This document shows positions 8,564 through 61,400 of a stretch of 64,000 nt of DNA, piece by piece. The notes below the pieces were generated by a model. It was not told where the DNA came from and did no database searches. It saw nothing but the letters and a program-made list of their open reading frames with translations. Where the stretch lies: contig NC_045696.1 in assembly GCF_009834535.1 (NCBI RefSeq), positions 23,004,001 to 23,068,000 on the forward strand, given 5' to 3'. A program made the translations under genes and the position numbers. This stretch comes from Camelus ferus. Taxonomy: Eukaryota. The first letter of the stretch is position 1. Each line of letters begins with the position of its first letter.

Positions 8564-9032
8564 TGCAGGAGTTCAGAAAAGACCCTCCCCAAGATGTACC
8601 ACTCTGGCATGTCGATTACTTTGAGCTAATGGCAAATGACAACCTGGTGGCTCAAGAGAAATGATTATGCCTCCCTTAACTTCCTAAGACAATTTAAACT
8701 GGGGAGGTTTTTCCAAAAGAGTTATTACAGGTAAGTGCTATCTTAGTGGCCCCACTTACACGGCAGAGCAAACCTCTAATTATCAAACATCTGCTCTTCT
8801 CATCATCCTGTGAATGACCTTAGAAGCCCATGTCCTCATCCCATCCCTTAGCTCAGGATGTAATACATACCTTATTTTCCCTTTTTGTCTTTGAACTTCG
8901 CATGCATGTGGGGTTCTCTACATACAAAATTAATTTTATTTTCTCCTGTTAATCTTTCTCATGTTAATGTAATTCTTAGAGTACCCAGAAGAACCTAGAA
9001 AGGTAGAGGAAAGTTTATCCTCCTCCTTGACA
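8564..9032 (+). mobile_element. ERV1 solo LTR, MER34-like
   Basis: TG...CA termini with a perfect 4-bp TSD CTTG (8560-8563 and 9033-9036). Start TGCAGGAGTTCAGAAAAGACCCTCCCCAAGATGTACCACTCTGGCAT...TTTGAGCT and end AGAAGAACCTAGAAAGGTAGAGGAAAG are MER34-family hallmarks. Confidence 0.85.
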
Positions 9033-18408: not shown

Positions 18409-19207
18409 AGACAAATACTGTATAATTTCACTTATATATGGAATCTAAAAAAATGAATAAACGTAATAAAACAGAAACATAGTTACAGATACAGAGAACA
18501 GGCAGGCAGTTGCCAGAGGGGAAGGGTTTGGGGGGAGGAAAGAAATAGGTGAGGGAGATTGAGAAGTACAAACTTTCAGTTGGGATACAGATGAGTCATG
18601 GGTTTGAAATGTAAAGTGCAAAGAATATAGTCAATAATTATGTAATATCATTGTATGATGACATATTGTGACTAGATATATCTTGGTGGTAATTTTAAAG
18701 TGTTTAGATACCAAATTACTATGTTGGGTAATAGGAACTAACATAGTGTTGTAGGTTAATTATACTTCAAAAACAAATAAACTCATAGAAAAAGAGATCA
18801 GATTTGTGGTTACCAGAGAAGGAGGTTTGGGGAAAGGGGGACCTGGATGAAGGTTATCAAAAGGTACAAACTTACAGTTATAAGATAAGTAAGTACTAGC
18901 AATGTCATGTACAGTATGATAAATATAATTAACATGGTTATATGCTATATATGAACGTTGTTGAGATAGTTAATCTTAAGAGTTGTCATCATGAAAAAAA
19001 TTCTATTTCTTTAATTTTGTATCTATATGAGATGATGGATGATCACTAAACTTACTGTGGTAATCATTTCATGATGTATGTAAGTCAAGTCATTCTGCTG
19101 TACACCTTAAATTTACACAGTGCTGTATGTCAATTATATCTCAATAAAACTGAAAGAAAAAAAAAACCAAACCAAAACCAAAAAAATAGTAAAAGCAAAG
19201 AGAAAAA
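18409..19207 (+). mobile_element. L1 3' end (L1MA-derived laurasiatherian type with duplicated 3' UTR)
   Basis: AGACAAATACTGTATAATTTCACTTATATATGGAATCTAAAAAAA...GTACACCTTAAATTTACACAGTGCTGTATGTCAATTATATCTCAATAAAACTG plus an A-rich tail. Approximate TSD TAAAAGAT(A/T)..TTTTCA on both sides. Confidence 0.9.
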
Positions 19208-20362
19208 TAAAAGATTTTTTTCATGGGATCTCAGAATAAAATTATGTTGAGTCTATCATTAATGAAAATGAACCAGGAAAATTCTTTATTTCACCAAGAA
19301 ATTTGCTTTGAATATGATTTTCCCATCATGGTATGTAAATTTTTCCAGTCCAAGCATTTCTTTATGGTCATGTTTATGACCACGATGTGGCACACATCCT
19401 GTGAACCATCCACCCTCGGAAATTTGGGAGAACATCAGGAAGGACCACCATACCACAGAGCTACACTGATTCTCCAAAAGTTTACAGTATTTTTTTTTTG
19501 CCAGAATGTACATACAGTGTAAGTCGTGGTTTCTGGCATTTTCCCTGCTTTTCATCTTACACTGGCCATTTGTTTAATTAAAAAGATTTGATTAGGTGAG
19601 GTGAGGGTGGCAGGAATTCTTTCCCACTCCTGATGATTTTTTTTTTTTCTATGAAACAATCCAGGCCTCTCTCCTCTTACTCAGTCTTCCCAGGGACCTA
19701 TTCTGATTGATATGTTTGCAAGAAAAAAATACCCATGCATCAGTCAATCCCTTTTGCTATTCTATTTTCTTTGGGGTTGACCTTCCCGCAAAAAGAGCTA
19801 TCAGGCAATAAAATGGGGCCTGTCCCACTGAGGAGACCTAGATTTTCTAGTCTGAATGGATGAGTAAGTTTTTCTGATTCTGAGGTTACTATGAAAAAGT
19901 CTGTATATCTCCGTGTCTAAGCTACATCCTCCAATCTAGTCCTGATTCACAACAAATGTGATATTTTGGCCTACCGTCTGCCTCCTCTTCCCCGTGCTTT
20001 GTCTCATTTCACAGCTTGGCTCAGAACTCAAGGGAACCTGCAGCGAATGTTTCTAGCAGAACTCTTAAGGACCATTATGATCTACTGAAGAAAAGTCAAC
20101 ATGCGAAATTTTGCTTCACTTGCAAGTTGAAATAGATTCAATTTTTGGTTATGAATTAGTCTATTTTTATGGTCTCTTTAGATAATTTTTAGTATTATTT
20201 ATTCCTTAATGGGTCCTTTGAGGCCACAGAAAATTTCCTGAGTGTCCCATGGTAGCAGTACAGAGCGCATAATGTATACTTCTCTTCACACATGGGTGTT
20301 ACTGATAAATATTAACCAGCAGATACTGTGTATAGTTGGGGATCTTTTCCAGGCATACTGTT

Positions 20363-20551
20363 GGATTTACTTTCTCTTGCCCAGTTTCCCTCATGGTCAG
20401 TGGCATGCAGCTATGAGACAGTTGGCCTGGATTTGAACTGGAGTCTGTGACTCAAGAAGAGAGAAAACCTCACTGGCCCATCTGGGGATCAAACCCGGGC
20501 TGTGGCCTCATTAGCACCACAATTCAACTCACTGAGCTAATTAACCACAGA
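20363..20551 (-). mobile_element. MamSINE1 (ancient tRNA-Ile-derived SINE)
   Basis: The minus strand reads CTGTGGTTAATTAGCTCAGTGAGTTGAATTGTGGTGCTAATGAGGCCACAGCCCGGGTTTGATCCCCAGATGGGCCAGT, a decayed tRNA-Ile(AAT) head with A/B boxes. A MamSINE1-like body follows (CACAGACT...GGCCAACTGTCTCA...GGGCAAGAGA). Confidence 0.8.
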
Positions 20552-22351
20552 TGTACAGTTGATTCCACTTCTTGAAGAATTACAGGTTGAAAAATTGTAT
20601 CAAAATGCATTTAGGATGAACTTGGATGTGTTATATTAAGTATATTTGCAAAAGTAAAAAAAATAGTTTTCTTTCTTTTTCAGAAATTTTAATACCATTG
20701 TAGTAACTGCATCCAAAAAGAAAGTGAATCCAGAATAAAAAATACAACAATGCTTACCCCCTTCACCCTCTATGCTACACAAACACACAGACACACACAC
20801 ACACAAATGTCCAGTGGCATATGTAAGCACTCCCATGGATATACAATATTCTATGGTTACTTCTACACCACAGTTTTGATCAGTGCTCTTGGTTTTTACT
20901 ACCTACTTCTTTTATTTTATAAAGCAGTTCCCTTCTTCCTTCCCAAAGATCTTCAGACTCTACAGTTCATTCATTCACTATCCACCTTTTATTTCTCTGC
21001 TCTGCATTTTTCCTACTCTACATAGACTGATGGGCACAATTTATTCATGACGGAATATAGAATTTCTTGGGAAAAAAGCAGTGAATGAAATAAATCTAGT
21101 AAAATAATGTTTTCAATAAAGGATTACTAATAGTGTCCTGAGAATATACACCTTGTGATTAGCAAATACATTTTATTATTAATTACATGGTTAAAATACA
21201 TTAACAAGTCAATAAACAAAAAATAGAAAAATTACTGGCTTTTCCACAATTATTAAGCTACTTGCAAGACCTGTACTACACTGTAAGTGCTTAAAGAGAG
21301 GCAAAAAGTGCCATGTACACCCAGAAATTACTTTTTCCTATTTTATTCTCTGCTTATAAGACAATCAGATATTTGTGCCTTTTCGAGCTTAAAAAATGTG
21401 TAAGATTCTTTTCCTCACTTATTCTCTGAACAAAAATTGAAATATAATACAAAATCTTCTAACTTGTGAAATTTAAGTATAGTTTCTCACATGGACTTAT
21501 TGAAAAAATTTATATGAACTTTTCTCAAGGAAATAGACTATTTACATGAGCAATTTTCATATAAACTTCATGCTTATATATTTTAGAGTAAGAATTTCAA
21601 GCCCCTGGTTTGAATTGATCCCAAGTTGACTTGTATTAATTCAGGATAGACAGATTTAAAAAATATACCGATTTTAAGGCTTTATCTCTGTATCTTTTCT
21701 TTTTTGTATGGTGCAATCTGGTGCAATCAAGTCTTGATCTTTACATTTTAACGTCTTAAATATGTTTTACACTTGTCTACGTGTTCATTTCCTGAAGTAG
21801 TCATCACAAATATCAAAACACTTATCAAATATTGCTGTACTTTTTATTCATCATTTGCTATTTTTGGTGTCACAAGAAGCTCGTGATGCCTTCCCACTCC
21901 ATGATTCTGGCATAACTTCACTTCTATCATCTTGATGTTCCCATCTAAACTATTTACAGTTTCTCTTCATCATTAATAAGGAGGTCTTTTTTTTTTCTTT
22001 TTTTTTTTTTAAGTAATTCCCACACTGACGAGTGAGTTTTAATTATCATTACATCTGCGGGAAATGAATGGATAAATTGGCCCAAAACAGTGAACTCTCT
22101 ATATAGTTTAAATTGATTCCCCACCTCCAGCTCCCCACTGCCAAGCTTTCTTAGGCATTTTAGAGCCGAGGGCAACTGGGCTACCTGTCAGGATCATATC
22201 AAAGCTCTAATACAGTTTTTCTTCAGACAAGTACAACTAGAAAGGGAGGTTTCATCGCCCCACCTTTAATAAATGAAAGGCTTGTATTGCCCTGAGCAAA
22301 TTCCTAGAGATTTTCAAATATAGGTGACTAATTACTTTCTAAAAGAGAAAG

Positions 22352-22643
22352 TTAAAGGCATTATTAAAAATCTACATTGTTCTGTCTATACGAAGGTAGT
22401 ACAATACAGTATTATGGATCCACCAAGAGCATGTACTTTGAATTATTTTCGAACAATGGCAGCTGAATTTGCTGAGCCGGATATACGTTCCCAGCATATC
22501 CCCGTTATGAACAACAGCCAGTGCTTTTGAGGTTGATGGCAAAGGTTAGTGATGCAGGGATGGCCTGGAACTGGAGATTGTGTCTGTGGAACAGAAGGGA
22601 ACAGGTACATAATGGATACCATCTCCCATCATACTATCATAAA
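22352..22643 (+). repeat. Left arm of ~292-bp inverted repeat (pairs with 23611-23902)
   Basis: Manual alignment to the reverse complement of 23611-23902 gives 25 substitutions and one 2-nt indel over the first ~270 nt, with a 36-nt perfect core at 22487-22522. Confidence 0.97.
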
Positions 22644-23610
22644 ATAGAAGTTGCAACCACAAGGTTCAAAGAGTCCTAAAAAATGCTTGCTTTATTAAAT
22701 AAAATTCACACAATACTTTATTATAGCTCAAGAATTCTTCCATGACTGAGATGTAGAAATAATATACAGTAATATACATGAGTCATATATATTACATGAA
22801 TATCTGTTATATAAATAACATTCTTTTTAGGGAGGTAGAAATGGCAAAAATAGACTAATAGGTATACAGAGATTGTCATAAAGTTGTATAAATGTCCAAG
22901 GGAAAAATGTGTATTAAAAGCAATCGCTTGAACTATCTAAACAAGTTACTTGGGTCACTTAATTGTCAATTTGTTGATATGAAGAAATCAGTTGTTAAAA
23001 CAGCAGGACAAATGGAATTGACCAAGTTGCAGATGCAACGTGTTTAGCATTGATATGTCAAAACCATCCTGTATTGACCCCCTTAGACAGGTCAGAGGCT
23101 ATTTAGAAAAAGTCAGTATAAAATGGTTTCCATTCTAAAATCAAACAAAACAGCAGCAGCAATGACAACAGTAAAACACTGTTTATAATGTTCACCCTCT
23201 AATTACAAAATAGACCTTATCTTTCCAATGGGCAAGAAAGAAAATTTCCCACATTATGGAAGGAATCCTCATGCTTGTATTGCTGAACTCTGTCTCATAA
23301 ATGACCTCTAAATGGCATTCTAATTGACAAGCACAGTATGAATTACTGCTTTAAAAATGGAAAATGTACTCCTTTGTTATTCATAAGATTCATATAAGCA
23401 TCAAGCTCATGTCTTCATCAAATATGCTATTAGTTTAATTTGGAGCCTGCATTCTGATAATTTACAGAATTAGTGAAAAGTTAAAAGGCCTTCTTAGACA
23501 TAGAGCTCAAAAAGAAATTCTATTAATTTAACTTTTTGCCATCTTTCTTGCAGCTAGCTTATTCTCCATGTTATGCATGGTGGATTGGTTCAGCTTCTCA
23601 GTAAATGGCA

Positions 23611-23902
23611 TTTATGATACCATTGGGGGGTGGTATGCATTATGTGTACCTGCTCCCTTCTGTTCCACAGACACAGTCTCCAGTTCCAGGCCATCACTGG
23701 GTCACTAACTTTTGCCATCAACCTCAAAAGTACTGGCTGTTGTTCATAACGGGGATATGCTGGGAACATATATTCAGCTCAGCAAATCCTACTGCCACTG
23801 TTGGAAAATAATTCAAAGTACACACTCTTGGTGGATGCATGATACTATATTGTACTACCTTTGTATAGCCAGAACAATGTGGATTTTTAATAATGTCTTT
23901 AA
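23611..23902 (-). repeat. Right arm of ~292-bp inverted repeat (pairs with 22352-22643)
   Basis: Its reverse complement reads TTAAAGACATTATTAAAAATCCACATTGTTCTGGCTATACAAAGGTAGTACAA...GTTCCCAGCATATCCCCGTTATGAACAACAGCCAGT...GTATCATAAA, collinear with the left arm. Confidence 0.97.
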
Positions 23903-24089
23903 ATAAGAGATAAAGAATGCATTAAAGAAAACACATTTTGTTCACAGGACTAAGCCAGCAACCTTCAGACCAAACATACGAGGGCAGTTATAAGATCAAA
24001 ATATAGATACTTGGTGTTATTGTAAATTAAATGCCTCAGGTAGCCTCCCTTTTCTAATTGCCACCACCCGAAGCTAAAAGCTTATCTCT

Positions 24090-24780
24090 CCCTCCACACC
24101 TGCACAGCAGCAACTGCTTCCTGCGGACTTTCCTGACTCCAGGCTGCCTCTCACCTTTCTTTCCACACTTCACCTGTCACCCACATACTGCATACCAGTT
24201 CCAGACTAATCCATCTTAAATGCTACTTTCATCATGTTATAACACTGCTTAAAAATCAACTGTGGAGTTCTACTTCAAACCATCCCAAACACAAACTTTT
24301 CTACAAAGCTGTCAAGGCCATACATAAACTGCTTGCATCATTCTCATTTAAATGTATTTACTGTGATTCACCAGCTTCTCGATCGCCTTCTTGCTGTCTC
24401 ATTAACAGTCACATTCATTGGACACTGCATTCTTTCATGCCTGAGATGCACCTCATATAAAATGCCTTCCACTTTTACCCTAGTTTCATGAACGAAGTGC
24501 TGCAGAGTCAACACCATACTCCTGATGCTCCCAGGAAGCACTCTCCTGTTACCGCCGCCATCCTTAGATCCCATCTCCTCTCAACTCCTCTGTCCCTGAA
24601 TACACTTTCCGGGGATGTAGCTTTCTGTTATTCAAGATTCTTCCATGTGTTTTAGACACATTTCCATAATTATATCATAACACATTTGAAGAGAAGTACT
24701 ATGCTAATTACTTCGGTATCTTTTACTTTATGACAAAAACTGTACTAAAATACAGCAAGCTCTTAAAATTATTGATCAAT
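24090..24780 (+). mobile_element. Degraded L2 fragment
   Basis: Pyrimidine-rich L2-like phrases: CCAGACTAATCCATCTTAAAT...TCATGTTATAACACTGCTTAAAAATC...GTCAAGGCC...AAATGCCTTCC. Boundaries approximate. Confidence 0.55.
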
Positions 24781-27700
24781 TGTAGTGCATTTCCACACAG
24801 CAGTAACAAATTACAGCATTATTTTCCTGCTCATTTCAGAATTCATAAAGCATTTTCTTCTTGCTTTTCCAGTAATGGAAGTGGTTTTTAAGGCATAACA
24901 AAATTTTTTTTCTTTGCTATGGAAGTTAAAATTTGTCACATGGTACTACTAATTTTAAAAAGGTAAAACACTTATATATAAAAACTTTTGAATTGCCATA
25001 CATATAGGGAGCACAGTGATTCAGAATCATGAGAAGACATGTGAATAACAATTTCTGCTAACCTGAAAGTATACACCTGCACAAAAATGTAGACACTAAC
25101 CCCCAAATATTACACACTACTTAAGGTTTTTGCTATTTCCTCAAAAGTCAGCACTTGTGTATTAATGATATAAGGAAGTCTGGCAATAAATGTACCTTAA
25201 ATAATTCTTTATTAAAGTATTATTCTTGGATTTCTGAAGAAATTTTATTTTCTTTCTTATTCTTTTCATTCTTTTAAAGTAAGTAATCTAGCATAATCTG
25301 GTAATTAAAGTTTTTTAAGCTCTGTGACCAGTAACAATGACACACACCTCAGGGGTGATCAATTATTGTTAAACTGCACTAATGAGTATTGGCTAAATTT
25401 AACCATTTTGAAAGGCTTTTATCCTTTTGTAAAAAAAAAAAAATTCAGTCTATTATTTCATCTATTTCTTTAAATACCATTTTAGAAATAAGCTCCCAAT
25501 GAAATCCTTGTGGAATTTTATAGACTTAAAAACAAGTGACATTCTAAAATTAGAAGGTACAACAATTCTATTTTGTAATTAGTACTTTAAAAAAAAAAAC
25601 AGGGATTGTTGGTAAATTATCCCAACCAACCAAAACAATAAGGGCTTTAATAGAAGCTCTCCTACATGAGATTTCTAATTTCTCTGGATCTCATTTTTTC
25701 CTTATGTTCACACAGATCTATCTTGTCCCTTCTTATTCAAGGGGCTAAGCTGCCTACTCTAATACCTTTGTGTATAGATTATCTTTGAAGAGGGGCTCAT
25801 AATAAATATTGATATTATACAAATAATAACAGTGTTAATAATATTTTGTGAGATTGAGAATACATATTTTATTAATATTTCTAACAATAGTAAGATGTCT
25901 AGTGCTCTGAAAAGAAAAGCAGTTTAACTGCTAAAAAAACACACAGGGGTAGGAACTGAGAAATCTGAGAGCTTGTAGGATATTGACTGGAAAGGTCAAA
26001 GTCATGGGATGATGGGGGGAAGCCAGTGGGGGTATGTTTTCCTGGTGTATGTAATGTAAGTGTGCAAAGTATAGAGGAGAGCTGTGATAACCAATATATA
26101 TGTGTTCATTTTAGCACTGTAGGATTATTTGCAGAAATATGAAATTTTTTTCACTTCAAATTCAGATAAAGCATTTTCAAAGAACAATAATCAAAAAAGG
26201 CATATTGTCTGTTTTCTTTGTAGAATACAGGACTACTGTTTATTTTTTATACAACTCTATTGCATAGGAAAAGCTCAGCAAACACAGAAATAAATCAAGA
26301 AAACTCCACAATCTATAATATGTCTTCGCTTTACTTCTTCAAATTACTTTGGTGTTAAATTTAAAATTCTATTCCTATTTTTTCTGCTCTAAATTTTCTA
26401 AAATAACTTATTTTCAAATCAACATCAAAGAGAGTAGAACTTATACCAGTATTTCTTTGTTTCATCTGCCTTGAGAAAAATCTCAACAATTAATGATGCA
26501 ATGCTTAACAGTCCCCTTTCTTAACCTGTTTTCAGCTCAGCAGCTTTTCAATGAAAGCTCCAGTTCAGTCATAGCAGGCATCTATTTCCCTGGAATTGAC
26601 TATACCGAAAGCATTCTTTTAATAAATTAAACGTACTGGGCTCTGAAACTCAAATCATCTACTTAATAAAGTCATGAGTCTGTTTTCTTTTCTCCAGCAA
26701 TATTACAACATAATTATATTCATGAATTCCAGTTTGTGAGCTCTATTTCATAGTCTCCTCACATTAAAAAGGGCAATGTTTAGTTTTATCTTATGAATTC
26801 TGTTACCATTCCCAAGTGCCAGAGCAAAAAGGATAGTAAATTTGACTAAAAGACACTGTCCTTTGAGATGAGTAAATACTGGTCTCCTTGCCACAGTGTC
26901 TGCACGAATGCCCTGTTCATTTTGAGAACTTTCTTTATTTGCTTTGCTCCGGTTAGTTGGCATACTCTATCCCCTGTAAGAAAGTCATTTCTATGATTAG
27001 AGTTTATGCACTTGATGCCAAAACTAGCAACCAAAAAGTTAAAAATTAAAAGATTTTGGTGGGTTATGTTTTCTTTTGTTTTGGGCTATAGGATTAAAAG
27101 AAATGGCCAGTTTAACTGAAGTGTTGATGAAGTACATTGTGTGGTCTGAAGTACTGTGGTTTGGTACCACCCAGACAGAGCACTTACTAGAATACTTAGA
27201 ATCTCAGGCTTGTCTATATTCTGTGACTCCCACACACATTTCCTACACAATATCTCTCTTCTTCACAAAGCAAAAGTAATTCATAGCAGTATGAGATGAA
27301 AGCACTGGAAAATTTTGAAAATGGGAGCTATCACTTCTCTGAGAAGTAGAAAAAGATTCTAATAATCAGGACCCTCCCAAAGGTAAAGATATAAATAATC
27401 CTCCAAATCGGTACTGAGAATTGTAAGAGACGGAACTTATATGTTGAAAATACTATCTCAAATTTCATCTACGATAGCTTCATAGATGATGAAAATGGTG
27501 GAAGTGGGGCAAAAGTATCAAGAAAGTTTCACAGTGTTGTTCATGCATGCTTATTGCAAGCAGACAAAAGAACTCTATTGCTATCAGGTCTAATCATTAG
27601 ATGCAATTACGAAGATTTAGAGGATGAAGAGAAGGGGTGACAGAAAAGAGACTATGAGACTATGTAAAAAAGAGGTAAATTAAAAGAGAACAGAGATCAA

Positions 27701-32786: not shown

Positions 32787-33479
32787 TTTTTTAAAATTGA
32801 AGTATAGTCAGTTACAGTGTGATAATTTCTAGTGTACAGCATTATGTTCCATTCATACATATACATACATATATTCCTTTTCATATTCTTTTTCATTATA
32901 GGTTACTACAAGAAATTGAATATAGTTCCCTGTGCTACACAGAATAAACATGTTGTTTATCTATTTTATATATAGTAGTTAGTATTTGCGAATCTCGAAC
33001 TCCCAATTTATCTTTTCCCACTCCCTTCCCCGGTTACCATAAGTTTGTTTACTATGTCTGTGAGTCTGTTTCTGTTTTGTAGATATGTTCATTAGTGCCT
33101 TCTTTATTTTTTTCTTTTTTAGATTACACATATGAGTGGTATCATATGGTATTTTTCTTTCTCTCTCTGGCTTACTTCACTTAGAATGACAATCTCCAGA
33201 TCCATCCATGTTGCTGCAAATGGCATTATTTTATTCTTTTTTAAGGCTGAGTAGTATTCCACTGTATAAATATACTACAGTTTCTTTATCCAGTCCTCTC
33301 TTGATGGTCATTTAGGTTGTTTTCATGTCTTGACTATTGTACATAGTGATGCTATGAATACAGGGGTGCATGTATCTTTTCAAATTACAGTTCCCTTCGG
33401 ATATATGCCCAGGAGTGGGATTGCTGGATCATATGGTAAGTCCATTTTTAGTTTTTTGAGGAATCTCCAAACTATTTCC
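32787..33479 (-). mobile_element. Young 5'-truncated L1 (artiodactyl/camelid-type)
   Basis: Poly-T then AATTGAAGTATAGTCAGTTACAGTG...ATATAGTTCCCTGTGCT...CCATCCATGTTGCTGCAAATGGCATTATT...GGAGTGGGATTGCTGGATCATATGG. TSD CATCTTTTT at 32783 and 33480. Confidence 0.92.
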
Positions 33480-38841: not shown

Positions 38842-39381
38842 GATATTATCTCTGACCTTAAGAGTCTCAATTCTACTTGGGAAGAGAGACATGTGAGCAA
38901 CTGTAATTAGGTACCATTAAATGCAGTGAAATATGTAGTGATATAATAAAGAATTCAAATAGAAGAAGGGAGGGTGAATCTGTCCAGAGGAAGTCAGGAG
39001 AGGTCTCAGAGAGTAAAATATTAAAGGTAAAAATGTAAAACAAACCAGGGTCCACTGACCCATGTTTATTCATTAATGATTATGTGACAAGATTTGCATG
39101 TTTGATTTTTATTTTCCCCATGGGCTTGACTTCCCTTTGATCCATTATCTTTAGTCATCATTTTCTTTTAAGATTAATAAAAGACCAAAGGTTTGCAGAA
39201 AGCTTGAGTAAAACAAAAGATGGTAATAAATTAGTAGTCAGGGGTTAGAAAAAATATATGTTCAAAAAATGATGTCTCTTAACCATAATTCTTTTGCACT
39301 TCATAATATATTTTAATTGGTTCAGTCTTGCTTTCCTCTTTCTGGAATCCAGAGATAGACTGAAAAGGCTTATCTGATAAG

Positions 39382-39548
39382 AAACAAATTTCTTCTGTAT
39401 AGCCCAGGGAACTATATTCAGTATCTTGTAGTAACATATAATGAAAAAGAATAAGAAAACAAATCTATGTATGTATATGTATTACTTAAACATTATGCTG
39501 CACACCAGAAATTGACACATTGCAACTGACTATACTTCAATTTTAAAA
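39382..39548 (+). mobile_element. Short young L1 3' tail with 17-bp TSD
   Basis: TGTATAGCCCAGGGAACTATATTCAGTATCTTGTAGTAAC...CTGACTATACTTCAAT. TSD AAAAGGCTTATCTG(A/G)TA at 39363-39379 and 39549-39565. Confidence 0.92.
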
Positions 39549-39729
39549 AAAAGGCTTATCTGGTAGGTCTCCATATTTGTTGCTAATGACTTGTGGCTCC
39601 TGCCTAAATTATTACACAAAATTTCCAAAGGACATGGGAGAACAAGGGTTACAGTGCTCTTTAATTTCCCTATTTCTTAGTGATCTATGATTCACTCATG
39701 GATTGAGCAAGTATGCATGGCATCCATGA

Positions 39730-44589: not shown

Positions 44590-44996
44590 CAATGTAAATT
44601 CTATTTATCTGTTGTACATGACATCCTCAGTACTTCTTTACCTTGTGACTGGAAGTTTGTACCTTTTGACGGCCTTCTTCTAATTCCCCTTCCTCCACCC
44701 TAACCTTTGGTAACCACAGATCTGATCTCTTTTTCTATGTGTTTGTTTGTCTGTTTTTGAGGTATAATTGACCTATAATACTATGCTAGTTCCCGGTACG
44801 CAACATAGTGATTCAATATTTCTATATATTTCAAAGTGATCACCATGGTAAGTCTAGTTACCATCTGTCACTATACAAAGATATCACATAGTTATTGACT
44901 ATATTCTTCACACTGTACATTTCATACCCGTGATTCATTTATTTTGTAACTGGGGGTTTGTGCCTCTTAATCTCCCTCATCTATTTCTCTCCTTCC
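44590..44996 (-). mobile_element. L1 3' UTR fragment (same type as 18409-19207, opposite orientation)
   Basis: GGAAGTTTGTACCTTTTGA...GGTAACCACAGATCTGATCTCTTTTTCTATG...TATTGACTATATTCTT is the reverse complement of sequence seen at 18550-18900. Confidence 0.88.
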
Positions 44997-57084: not shown

Positions 57085-58262
57085 GGTTACTCAGTAGCAA
57101 CTGTTACAGTTGTGACTTTATGTTTATTGTAGTAATTATTAGAATACTCTCTTCTCCCACAAAATGATACCTGTTCCTGCAGAACACACAGTATCTGTTT
57201 TTCTTGGACAATGACTAGTATACAGTAAGCACTAAATAAATACTTGTTAAGGGATGAATGATTAAACCAATACTCAGCTCTCTTAAATCTGAGTCAAACA
57301 TTTTTATGTTGTTAGCTCTTTCTGCTTACCCTTCAGCCTACTCACTAAAACTGTATTGTAATTGCCTAACACTTTGGTCTGTCCCATCTCTCTCTCATCC
57401 ACCATGTTGAACATTCCTTAAAGGCAGAGAATGTGTCTGATCCATCTTCATGTTCTCACTTCCTAACACAGTACTTGATGGAAAAATACCTAAAGAATGG
57501 ACGGATGAATAGCAACCCTAATAATTTCTAAGTATCCAGCAAGGGGTAGGCATCAAGCTAGTTCATTTGTGTGACACATATCCCTTTTCTTCTTTACAAG
57601 AAATTTGGAAAGAAATGATATAACCTCTACTTTTATAGAGCAGGAACCTTAGAGATAAAATAACATGCCCTAGGCATAATGTGGTACAGTTAGAAGCTGA
57701 GCTTCTTAGGTCTCATGCTAAAACCCAGAGAATTACCCTGACTATACAGGTGGAAATTTCTTTGCTTTGTCTATGAGACCCAGTAAGTGATAGAGTTAGG
57801 AAATGGGAAATTTAAAATAACCCCATATTTTTCAATTCACAGATGAATATTATTTCAAATTACTATTTGGACCCAAGTAACTTAAGAAGAAATGAATAAA
57901 TCATGTTGTGAGTAAGATGAGTTCCTAAACCTAGGTTTTTTTCGGGTGGCCAAAATTTCATTTGAAAACTAAATATACAGTGCATGGACACTGACAATGG
58001 AATGTCTATTTAGTCAAAATTAAATTTTTAGTCAAATTTATGTTTATTTAACTAATAATATATCTGCCATGTAACACTTTATTGTGGAATCAATGGTAAG
58101 TTTTAAATATAAAATGATTTTTAAATCTTAAGATATTCGATCCTCAACCTCTTCAAAAGACTTAGATTTTAAGAAATAACATGGTTTTGGAATACAGTGC
58201 TCAATAAACTATCAAAAAGCTCACACGTTACATTTCTAGTGACAGATTTTATAATTAGTTTA

Positions 58263-58455
58263 TTTCTTTCTTATCTTTCCAACTTTTATTTATCTTCTTG
58301 TTTATTTAGTTTGTGGGGTTTTTTTTGGGGGGGGGAGGAAATTAGTTTTATTTATTTATTTGTTTATTTATTTATTTTAATGGAGGTACTGGGGATTGAA
58401 CCCAGGACCTCCTGCATCCTAGGTATACACTCTACCACTGAGCTATACCCTCCCC
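58263..58455 (-). mobile_element. Camelid tRNA-derived SINE (Vic-1-type)
   Basis: The minus strand reads GGGGAGGGTATAGCTCAGTGGTAGAGTGTATACCTAGGATGCAGGAGGTCCTGGGTTCAATCCCCAGTACCTCCATTAAAATAAATAAA...CTAATTTCCTCCCCCCCCC then an A-rich tail. TSD approx. TATAATT(A/T)GTTTA. Confidence 0.9.
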
Positions 58456-61400
58456 TCTATAATTTGTTTAAATATGCCTTCACCTTTCCTCCAGCCACAG
58501 ATTAAAATAATAAATTTATATATCAGACAAAATTTTAACCAACTTTATAAGAGGAGAAAAAAACTTCAGAAATGCAATTTCTGCCTACAGGAAATGTATT
58601 AAAAGGTAGAATTTAAAACATACTCACTCCTGACTATTTGAACATTAGAACAGAAGTATCATAGAACAAAGCAGGTAATATTACAGTAATGCCAATGTCT
58701 CAAGTGTGGGCTTCACCATTTTTAGAGCAATCTCATTTACTTCGTGCAGAACCCTCACAATTCTAAAAGATAGGTTTGGTAACAATTATTACTTTACATA
58801 TTGTTCTGAGAAATTGGAGATTTATATGATTTAAAACACATTTTCAAGTTTACTGAGAGGGTAAAAATGGACTAATTTAAAGCAATTCACACATGAATGT
58901 TGGTTCCAACCTAACATCCTGCTTACTCAGACAGATGATTATGTAGATGGTAACTAAGAAAAATGGGAAGACGTAAGGGCTATTAGGTTAACATTTTATC
59001 CAAGTTCCAGTCTAAAGGTGCTGTTGTATTTCCTTGGTATTTATTAATATTCTTTTTTCTTGAAATACATTTAATTCCATGACTGGTTTTAAAATTTCTA
59101 AATAATATTTGTTACTAATTTTTACAGGGTGTAAGTCTGGCAGTTTTCTTTGACAGAAATCAATTGACCCTACTGAAGAGTAACTCAGGCTTCCCTCCAG
59201 AAATGCCTTTATAGAACTAGTTTTCTAACTTAAGGTCATACCTACAGGGTATTATTTGTATCTTCTGAATGGAGGGTTTTTCTCATGTTATGATAGTAAA
59301 ATTTACTGTAATCTACCCGTTGCTCCAGGTTCAGTCACTTTTTATTAAGTGATTATCTGCGCAAATTGTTTCAACTACTTTCATTGCTTGGAGCAGTGGT
59401 TTTCAACTTGCATCTGTTAAAAATGCACTGAAGGGCAAATTTATCTTGAGAGTTTTCTCTCATTAGAAAGTGGTGCCAGTATTGCCTAGTTACAAAGCCA
59501 GGACTTACGTAAGTTCCTGGTCTCTGAACTTCCAAAGGACTTCTTATACCTTGTCACTCATTTGGCATTCATGTACTTAAGACCATAAATTGGTTAACTT
59601 TTCAATGATTTAATATTATTTCTCAACATAACTATAAGCCATCATGTCTGAAACTTTGTTATATTTCCTTTCATCTTAACAAGACTCAAAGCTAATGAAT
59701 ATAGTTGGTGCTCAGTAAATATTTGTTAAGAAGATTAGCCAATTTGACCATAAACTGATTTAACCAAAATGAGCTTAAACCATCCCCACTTAAGATCAGA
59801 ACCAGAATTAAAATGATCAAAGCACTGCACTGTTGCTGTAAGTGGGGTTCAATTTAATTCAAATCACTAAAACAAACCTAATAAATTCAGCTCAATTTCA
59901 AATAGATTGGAATCAAATAGTTATTTACTAAAACATACTACTTTAGGACATAAGAGAAACAGTGAGATGGAAAATGAAAGAGTCTGGGACGCTCACAACA
60001 TCCAGTTCCCCCTGAACGTGCTTGGCAGCAACAATGGCAGGATGGAATTCCATCCAGGGCAATTCTATTCAAGGAAGAGCTCCCCACTAATATCCCTTTA
60101 ATAGCCTTTGCAAAAATTATGAGAAAAATTATGTTTGATTTTCTTCTCACTCTAAATTCAAACAAAACACTTCTCTCTCTTTGTTCTCTTTTCTTGTTTG
60201 AGAAGGAAAATTAGGGGAAAATGTTGACAGAAAAAAAAAGATTTGAAGTCAGGAAAAAATAATTATTGTAACATTCTTTTAAGTTCTTGTGTTCCCTTAA
60301 CTTGTTTACATGCATTCATGCATGTGCACAAACATGAAATATATTCATTTGATATATACACATACATATATATCATTGATACATATTTCATAAACATTGC
60401 CAAAATATTGGTTTGAATATTTGAGTTATAGGCTAGAAAAGTAGAAAATACAAGAATCTATTCAAAAGCATTTGAATACTATAAAAATGCCTTTTTATTG
60501 ATGATTTAAATATCTAACATTCCCATCTCTCCATCTTCTCCAATAGCTGAACTACAGAAGCAGATATTATAAGAGAGTGCATAATCCCCAAATCTTGCAT
60601 TTATCATGTACTTAATATACATTTACATTCTTTTTATGTGTTGATTAAATTATTATAAGAATTATTTTCCATTCCAACACTAAAAGGAAGCTAAATATGG
60701 AGAAAATGCAAGTTCTCCCCCCCAAAAAAAGCCCTGCTGAAATTAAATTTAGAGCTTAGACTAGCCAGTTAAACGCAAATAACTTATTAATATATAAATA
60801 TCTAGATATAGATATCTAAACATCTAGATATGCTTTGTGTCCTGAGAACAATTACCTACACATAGGTTATATAATTGGTATACACTGAAATCAGCTACTT
60901 CTAGCATTTTGTTTTGTATTCTGAAAAAAATAAAAATAAAAGTATTATAAAACAGAAGTCCCTGGAAGAGATTACATTGGTTACTTGGTTCAAACCCTTA
61001 CTTTAGGAATGAAGGAACGGGGATCTAGACAGTTTAACTGACCTCTTTTTGAAACCTGAAATATCACCGTGGATTCCATTTCTACTAAGTGAGGAGTCTG
61101 GTTAGCAGTTCTTCAAATAGTGGCATTATTTACAGCATCCGTTTCACTGAAAGGGGTGTCTTTTGTCTGTTTGGTAACTTGTTTTGCAGAGTCATACAGT
61201 TTCACCGGCGCTCTCCCCTGATTGCAGTTCCTGCTTAGTTGCTGAGCCTGTCCTTCAACGGCTTTGCTCAAATGTTACTCCTTCTTAATTTATGGCTTCT
61301 TTGGTCATCCCAGCTGGAAGTGATCTTTACCTCCTCTGATCCACTACAGCAATTACCACATTTTGTCTTGTAATTCAACATGGCTTAGCGGAAGTGAATG

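Follow-up and report, generated by a model that had tools for sequence, protein, structure and literature searches.

Template switching writes a reverse-complement copy of a nearby sequence and in doing so makes new hairpins, as outlined by Löytynoja & Goldman (2017; PMC5453318) and by Mönttinen & Löytynoja (2022; PMC8794818). Species-specific long inverted repeats that are not built from transposons have been reported from primate introns (Wang & Leung 2009, cited in PMC5414712), and small inverted triplications of the DUP/IN/DUP type, whose inverted fragments range from about 150 nt to kilobases, have been given a replication-error origin (PMC13334657). The present analysis concerns a pair of 292-nt inverted arms around a 967-nt spacer in Camelus ferus (RefSeq assembly GCF_009834535.1, contig NC_045696.1), located at 22352-23902 of a 64,000-nt stretch that covers positions 23,004,001 to 23,068,000 of the forward strand. 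This whole stretch is referred to as the window, and coordinates are counted from its first letter. The locus adds one more case to a kind of structure that is already known, and it has the look of a scar left by an old rearrangement and not of an RNA hairpin gene under maintenance. We consider it probable, if well short of certain, that the pair arose when a local segment was duplicated once in inverted orientation, probably through template switching or the repair of a break, and that it is now decaying neutrally.

With the template-switch or four-point model, as described in the two reports on such events, the present pair shares a reverse-complement copy, which we propose was also made in a single event, and the capacity of the resulting inverted repeat to fold into a hairpin. 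The repeats of Wang & Leung, as they are summarized in PMC5414712, likewise have arms of unique sequence, spacers that reach about 2 kb and a non-coding setting in common with it; those repeats are intronic, while the present locus has no Pfam-supported exon in the 264 kb centred on the window, one pseudogene-like piece aside. The DUP/IN/DUP structures, in the terms in which PMC13334657 presents them, resemble the present pair in their replication-error origin (proposed here) and in the size range of the inverted fragments, but comprise three copies set about 30 nt apart, compared with two copies and a 967-nt spacer in C. ferus.

Structure and boundaries of the inverted repeat

The inverted repeat is a bounded pair of 292-nt arms around a 967-nt spacer, and comprises the following features:

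22352..22643, left arm: 292 nt, GC 41%, 5 CpG, placed by its alignment to the right arm
23611..23902, right arm: 292 nt, GC 41%, 1 CpG, matching the left arm in reverse complement
22644..23610, spacer or loop: 967 nt, GC 32%, single-copy, without internal inverted symmetry and with no Pfam family in six frames
22487..22522, left-arm copy of the perfect 36-nt core, paired with 23732-23767
23732..23767, right-arm copy of the same core, paired with 22487-22522

The whole unit of arm, loop and arm spans 1551 nt. A repeat search of the window paired 22352-22609 with 23645-23902 (258 nt ungapped, 91% complementary), while gapped BLAST paired 22352-22643 with 23902-23611 (88.8% over 294 columns, 29 mismatches, 2 gap openings, E 6e-106). 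In the global alignment of the arms, 290 aligned columns contained 29 mismatches, namely 21 transitions and 8 transversions, together with two 2-nt indels. These three comparisons bear out the inverted repeat of about 292 bp with a 967-bp loop that had been described in an earlier, sequence-only reading of this DNA, and the self-BLAST proposed there as a check confirmed the arms, extending the 258 ungapped nucleotides of the repeat search to 292 nt. The counts made in that reading (25 substitutions, 18 of them transitions, and one 2-nt indel in about 270 nt) gave the same picture, although they were slightly low. The perfect 36-nt core that it had located at 22487-22522 was recovered by pattern search, and its 67-bp helix at 22487-22553 of a plus-strand RNA, with three G·U pairs (at 22523, 22544 and 22553), was found again in both the alignment and the predicted fold. 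Self-BLAST of 22201-24100 against the 64-kb window returned the inverted pair and no further match.

According to the global alignment, similarity between the arms ended abruptly at all four edges. Beyond the arms, the inverted Smith-Waterman score of the 1-kb outer flanks was 13 (shuffle mean 13.1, maximum 17 in 100 shuffles), and that of the two halves of the loop was 15 (shuffle mean 13.2, maximum 20). Flank and loop scores were thus at the level of shuffled sequence, which indicates that the pair is bounded and is not what remains at the centre of a larger, decayed palindrome.

Two candidate extensions of the structure were rejected. A faint inverted likeness between 22120-22195 and 24036-24110, noticed by eye as a possible sign of a larger and more decayed palindrome, did not score above shuffles in the Smith-Waterman comparison. 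The possibility that the flanks are the halves of one interrupted older repeat was also discarded, as their best direct alignment (score 18) fell in low-complexity sequence some 900 nt away from the junctions, and both flanks were single-copy.

Copy number in the genome

The searched assembly comprises 2.09 Gb, and the window lies on a contig of 122 Mb. Counts obtained in the genome searches are lower bounds, given that very common words were skipped, and a positive control was added for this reason. When the left arm was used as DNA query, the two first-look candidates were the two arms themselves, under either cut-off applied (E<=0.001, E<=10). When as many as 3 mismatches were allowed, the 36-nt core occurred once in the forward and once in the reverse orientation, whereas the reversed control pattern was found in neither (0/0). 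Six-frame searches with two open reading frames (ORFs) that together cover the arm likewise returned the two arms only, plus one chance match at E 0.58. The single candidate obtained with the loop was the loop itself, and the flanks at 19300-22351 and 23903-27000 were single-copy save for eleven low-complexity matches of 30-43 nt. The 7.7 kb around the repeat (19300-27000) therefore held no detectable multi-copy sequence in the genome. Neither a third copy nor two direct copies flanking an inverted one appeared in the self-BLAST of the window or in the assembly searches, and arm homology to a target gene elsewhere in the assembly was absent from the DNA and six-frame searches.

The positive control, the 175-nt arm of a second inverted pair in the window (32787-32961 / 39376-39550), gave 2214 first-look candidates, 40 of 40 scored at 87-100%, and an interspersed repeat of the window gave 8601. 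Since both controls were readily detected, the method sees true interspersed repeats, and the arms are not among them. The copy-number check suggested in the sequence-only reading thus yielded the two arms and nothing else in 2.09 Gb, and its view that the arms are not a transposon holds as far as copy number shows. The same result separates the locus from inverted pairs of short interspersed nuclear elements (SINEs), the IRAlu-type sources of double-stranded RNA (dsRNA). Such pairs also give a long imperfect intramolecular duplex if transcribed, but their arms are interspersed repeats, in contrast to the 2 candidates found here against 2214 for a real repeat of the same window.

Concerning the control sequences themselves, the second inverted pair has arms of 175 nt with 86% identity and a 6.4-kb spacer, and belongs to a multi-copy repeat whose copies stand at 87-92%. 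These copies have diverged about as much as the unique arms, and the ages of the two may be similar. The other control is an interspersed repeat of about 760 nt at 18409-19166, for which 39 of the 8601 first-look candidates were scored (76-81% identity); it has distant inverted partners within the window at 44613-44689 and 44821-44996.

Coding and RNA content

No sequence in the window reached a Pfam gathering score among 175 stop-to-stop ORFs of at least 60 aa (150 + 25 scanned), which produced four sub-threshold matches. The element, translated in six frames with X in place of stop codons, matched no Pfam family at E<=10. Three frames were open for 61-68 codons in both arms (22324-22676 and 23593-23921), and the one ORF that was searched, a 68-aa arm ORF, had no homologue in a large protein collection. 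Two exact patterns scanned against metagenome contigs gave 0 matches. Substitutions between the arms were distributed over the three codon phases as 14/7/8. A coding arm was consequently rejected as a candidate, on account of the missing Pfam match, the missing homologue for the searched ORF and the lack of a clear codon-phase bias.

For RNA families, the Rfam 15 covariance models were used as the library. No match was obtained at E<=1 in 22100-24150, and at gathering score the entire window had one match only, to a tRNA at 58381-58452. A scan for bacterial-type promoters and terminators, which is not meaningful for the present genome, gave 13 promoter-like sites against 11.4 expected.

Divergence between the arms

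The Kimura two-parameter distance between the arms was 0.109, with a transition to transversion ratio of 21:8, and the substitution pattern looked neutral. Mismatches were spread evenly along the arms, with 4, 5, 8, 2, 4 and 6 per consecutive 49-nt bin. In simulations that scattered the same number of differences at random, the mean longest perfect run was 36.2, so that the observed run of 36 was unexceptional (P(>=36) 0.45); a helix of at least 67 bp tolerant of G·U pairs, on either strand, was obtained with a simulated P of 0.15. Evenly spread mismatches, together with a core and a helix of chance length, indicate neither a maintained core nor a conversion tract. Pairs of the G·U and A·C types were almost equally frequent, at 11:10 on the plus strand and 10:11 on the minus strand, and the transcribed strand could therefore not be inferred, as the sequence-only reading had already stated.

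Origin of the repeat

Judged by the internal evidence, the locus is more likely to be a neutral relic than a maintained RNA element, and there is no sign of gene conversion. Of the two origins that the sequence-only reading had offered, a local fold-back duplication agrees with the results, the arms being unique to the locus, sharply bounded, non-coding and related to no known RNA family. Under the one-off duplication that we favour, a 292-nt stretch of unique non-coding sequence would have been copied once, in reverse complement, about 1 kb from its source. The cause would be a replication template switch, either of the type known as fork stalling and template switching or microhomology-mediated break-induced replication (FoSTeS/MMBIR) or of the four-point type, or else the templated repair of a break. 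FoSTeS/MMBIR events are longer-range than four-point template switches. Afterwards, each copy would have decayed neutrally and on its own, until the two differed by about 11%. If the locus were read through on either strand, it would give rise to an imperfect RNA duplex some 270 bp long, which would be incidental and not the object of selection.

Mammalian neutral rates lie at 1-2.2e-9 per site per year. Dividing the distance of 0.109 by twice this rate would place the duplication roughly 25-55 Myr ago, on the assumption that gene conversion, of which none is visible, has not taken place. Given the long range of the event, the lack of visible microhomology at the junctions and the lack of a third copy, its exact mechanism is one that we infer from the outcome; the age and the choice of which arm would be the copy are to be taken in the same way.

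Several observations weigh against this account. No microhomology of at least 2 nt was seen by eye at the four junctions, although it could be masked by about 5% decay per arm and by edges that are uncertain by a few nucleotides. The template-switch events treated in PMC5453318 are mostly of tens of bases and very local, while the present one would involve 292 nt, a distance of about 1 kb and no visible microhomology. The evidence for the duplication comes from one genome. The distribution of CpG is a further point, with 5 in the left arm (observed/expected 0.42) and 1 in the right arm (0.08) against a window background of 0.17. Four CpG sites were found in the left arm only and 0 in the right arm only, which symmetric neutral decay would not give, the numbers being small; differential germline methylation or chance could be responsible for this asymmetry. 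Transcription of the stretch is possible, as some RNA-seq assemblies contain much of it. Finally, a direct match of 10/12 at the outer edges of the arms, although not significant after composition matching, would suit the insertion of a complete 1551-nt unit better than the copying of one arm. It involves the following sequences:

22340..22351, A/G-rich 12-mer TAAAAGAGAAAG: abuts the left arm, 10/12 match with 23904-23915
23904..23915, A/G-rich 12-mer TAAGAGATAAAG: begins one base past the right arm, 10/12 match with 22340-22351

Alternative explanations

An unlikely, though not negligible, alternative is that the arms are the terminal inverted repeats (TIRs), 292 nt each, of a non-autonomous DNA transposon present alone or in very few copies, which would have inserted once as a 1551-nt unit and produced a target-site duplication (TSD) of about 12 nt. 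Long-TIR non-autonomous DNA transposons include IR/DR-type Tc1-like and Mutator-like elements. The present element resembles them in its layout of TIR, AT-rich interior and TIR, in its total length of about 1.5 kb (about 1.55 kb here) and in the possible flanking direct repeat. The match of TAAAAGAGAAAG with TAAGAGATAAAG was unusual when compared with 5000 random pairs of positions (P 0.007), and its two mismatches are about what an arm divergence of 11% predicts. When flanks were shuffled or positions were matched for composition, however, the value rose to P 0.055-0.058, and the match is accordingly a TSD-like hint that does not reach significance. The statement in the sequence-only reading that no TSD could be seen therefore needs amending, given that a direct match does exist at the outer edges, but it stands in so far as this match is not significant after composition matching (P ~0.055). 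The edges also show TTAA and TA; these form part of the repeat and, being palindromic, carry no information about a TSD.

Further evidence sets the element apart from long-TIR transposons. It is single-copy, no other copy having been found in 2.09 Gb by DNA search at E<=10, by the 36-mer with up to 3 mismatches or in six frames, while the control repeat gave 2214 candidates under the same procedure. It carries no trace of a transposase in six-frame Pfam comparison at E<=10, and its termini (TTAAAGGC...) are, to our knowledge, unlike those of the transposon superfamilies, none of the canonical ones being recognized.

An older fold-back duplication, whose arms would have been kept alike through intermittent gene conversion, appears improbable. 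Closely spaced inverted repeats are able to convert each other, and the arm identity of 89% fits a younger origin, or an older origin followed by conversion, equally well. Conversion tracts should nonetheless leave long perfect blocks beside clustered differences, whereas the longest run here equals the random expectation and the differences are evenly spread. The part of the sequence-only reading in which the duplication was homogenised by gene conversion is for these reasons not upheld.

A maintained long-hairpin RNA locus, with pairing under selection, would supply a hairpin RNA (hpRNA), a precursor of endogenous small interfering RNAs (endo-siRNAs) or a substrate of ADAR, Staufen, PKR or MDA5, and we give it only a slender chance. 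If transcribed, either strand is predicted to fold into 269-270 arm-to-arm pairs, with minimum free energies of -654 and -652 kcal/mol compared with -354 on average for a shuffled right arm. A strong predicted fold is expected because the repeat itself pairs, and it is no evidence of function. The arms consist of unique sequence, as at gene-derived hairpin loci. Hairpin endo-siRNA loci, such as the hpRNAs of Drosophila and the hairpin siRNA loci of mouse oocytes, derive from and target another gene; the present locus has in common with them a long inverted duplication of unique sequence, but its arms have no third copy in the assembly that could serve as a target in trans, nor any Rfam match.

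The pattern of substitutions also argues against selection on pairing. If pairing were selected on one strand, G·U should exceed A·C there, and no such excess was observed on either strand; moreover, 8 transversions and 2 indels break pairs, and the longest helices were within chance (P 0.45 and 0.15). The setting is gene-poor and AT-rich, with no CpG-island-like stretch in 264 kb and a probable processed pseudogene as the sole Pfam-supported piece. Concerning transcription, two RNA-seq runs from one study contained 0.74 and 0.69 of the sampled words, for which a DNA origin is possible. Further RNA runs contained 0.30 and 0.12, and runs guessed to be RNA contained 0.82 and 0.70. The RNA runs carry 210-939 million letters, in which much of the genome may be present, and these shares were not counted as specific expression. 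Nothing that was found points to a transcribed and processed hairpin locus, and the maintained RNA structural element envisaged in the sequence-only reading has no positive evidence, in view of the absence of a G·U excess, the 8 transversions and 2 indels, the helix probability of 0.15 and the missing Rfam match.

A more specific version, to which we would attach even less weight, is a lineage-specific hairpin RNA locus that was created by one template switch, is transcribed in reproductive tissue and yields endo-siRNAs or dsRNA of relevance to ADAR or MDA5, composed of unique, non-transposon sequence, the CpGs of the left arm (5, compared with 1 in the right arm) then reflecting germline hypomethylation of an active element. 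If this were true, the locus would be a rare mammalian counterpart of the hpRNAs of flies. Were the locus both transcribed and processed, it would join the few sources of long dsRNA in mammals that are not built from transposons, and would be a tractable one for the study of self-dsRNA sensing, editing and RNA interference.

Inverted duplications are known as an artefact of some long-read assemblies, yet a palindromic chimeric read or a mis-join is very unlikely here and can be given almost no credence, considering that the arms differ by 11% (29 sites and 2 indels, where artefactual palindromes are near-identical) and that 14 DNA-type runs each contained 0.97 of the sampled words, as did the 5 from 3 studies that were left after excluding 9 flagged as a possible source.

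Genomic surroundings

The surroundings of the locus are either a gene desert or an intron of very large size. GC content over the 264 kb centred on the window was 31-38%, and within the window no 2-kb bin exceeded 0.40. The scan of the two 100-kb flanks revealed no CpG-island-like stretch, its best 500-nt segment having a GC content of 0.53 and an observed/expected CpG ratio of 0.59. Among 116 flank ORFs of at least 85 aa, one gave a Pfam match above cut-off, to a C-terminal piece of Ribophorin_I, and apart from this pseudogene-like piece no Pfam-supported exon was detected in the 264 kb. Four inverted pairs of at least 100 nt within 10 kb were counted in the same 264 kb, the present pair being the longest and the most similar.

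The Ribophorin_I ORF was located at 8617-8931 (+) of the flanking piece L013, about 1.1-1.4 kb before the window, and covered positions 362-432 of the 437 in the profile with 27.0 bits (cut-off 25). Because some 70 residues are contiguous, it is probably a fragment of a processed pseudogene, to judge from its sequence.

Within the window, and distant from the inverted repeat, the tRNA match at 58381-58452 (-) belonged to family RF00005 (43.3 bits, E 6.8e-06) and adjoined a (TTTA)n microsatellite at 58347-58377. Candidate identities for this match are a tRNA gene, a pseudogene and the head of a tRNA-derived SINE. An overlapping ORF on the opposite strand, at 58173-58502 (+), had a sub-threshold match to the Pfam family EXS, probably by chance.

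Biological meaning

If the ordinary explanation by a single inverted duplication holds, the locus would represent a clean natural case of a fairly large one (292 nt, at a range of about 1 kb) in unique sequence, with no functional implication. The divergence of its arms suggests persistence over tens of millions of years. As such, it would provide a data point on the seeding of potential hairpins by template switching, and on the tolerance of diverged, widely spaced inverted repeats.

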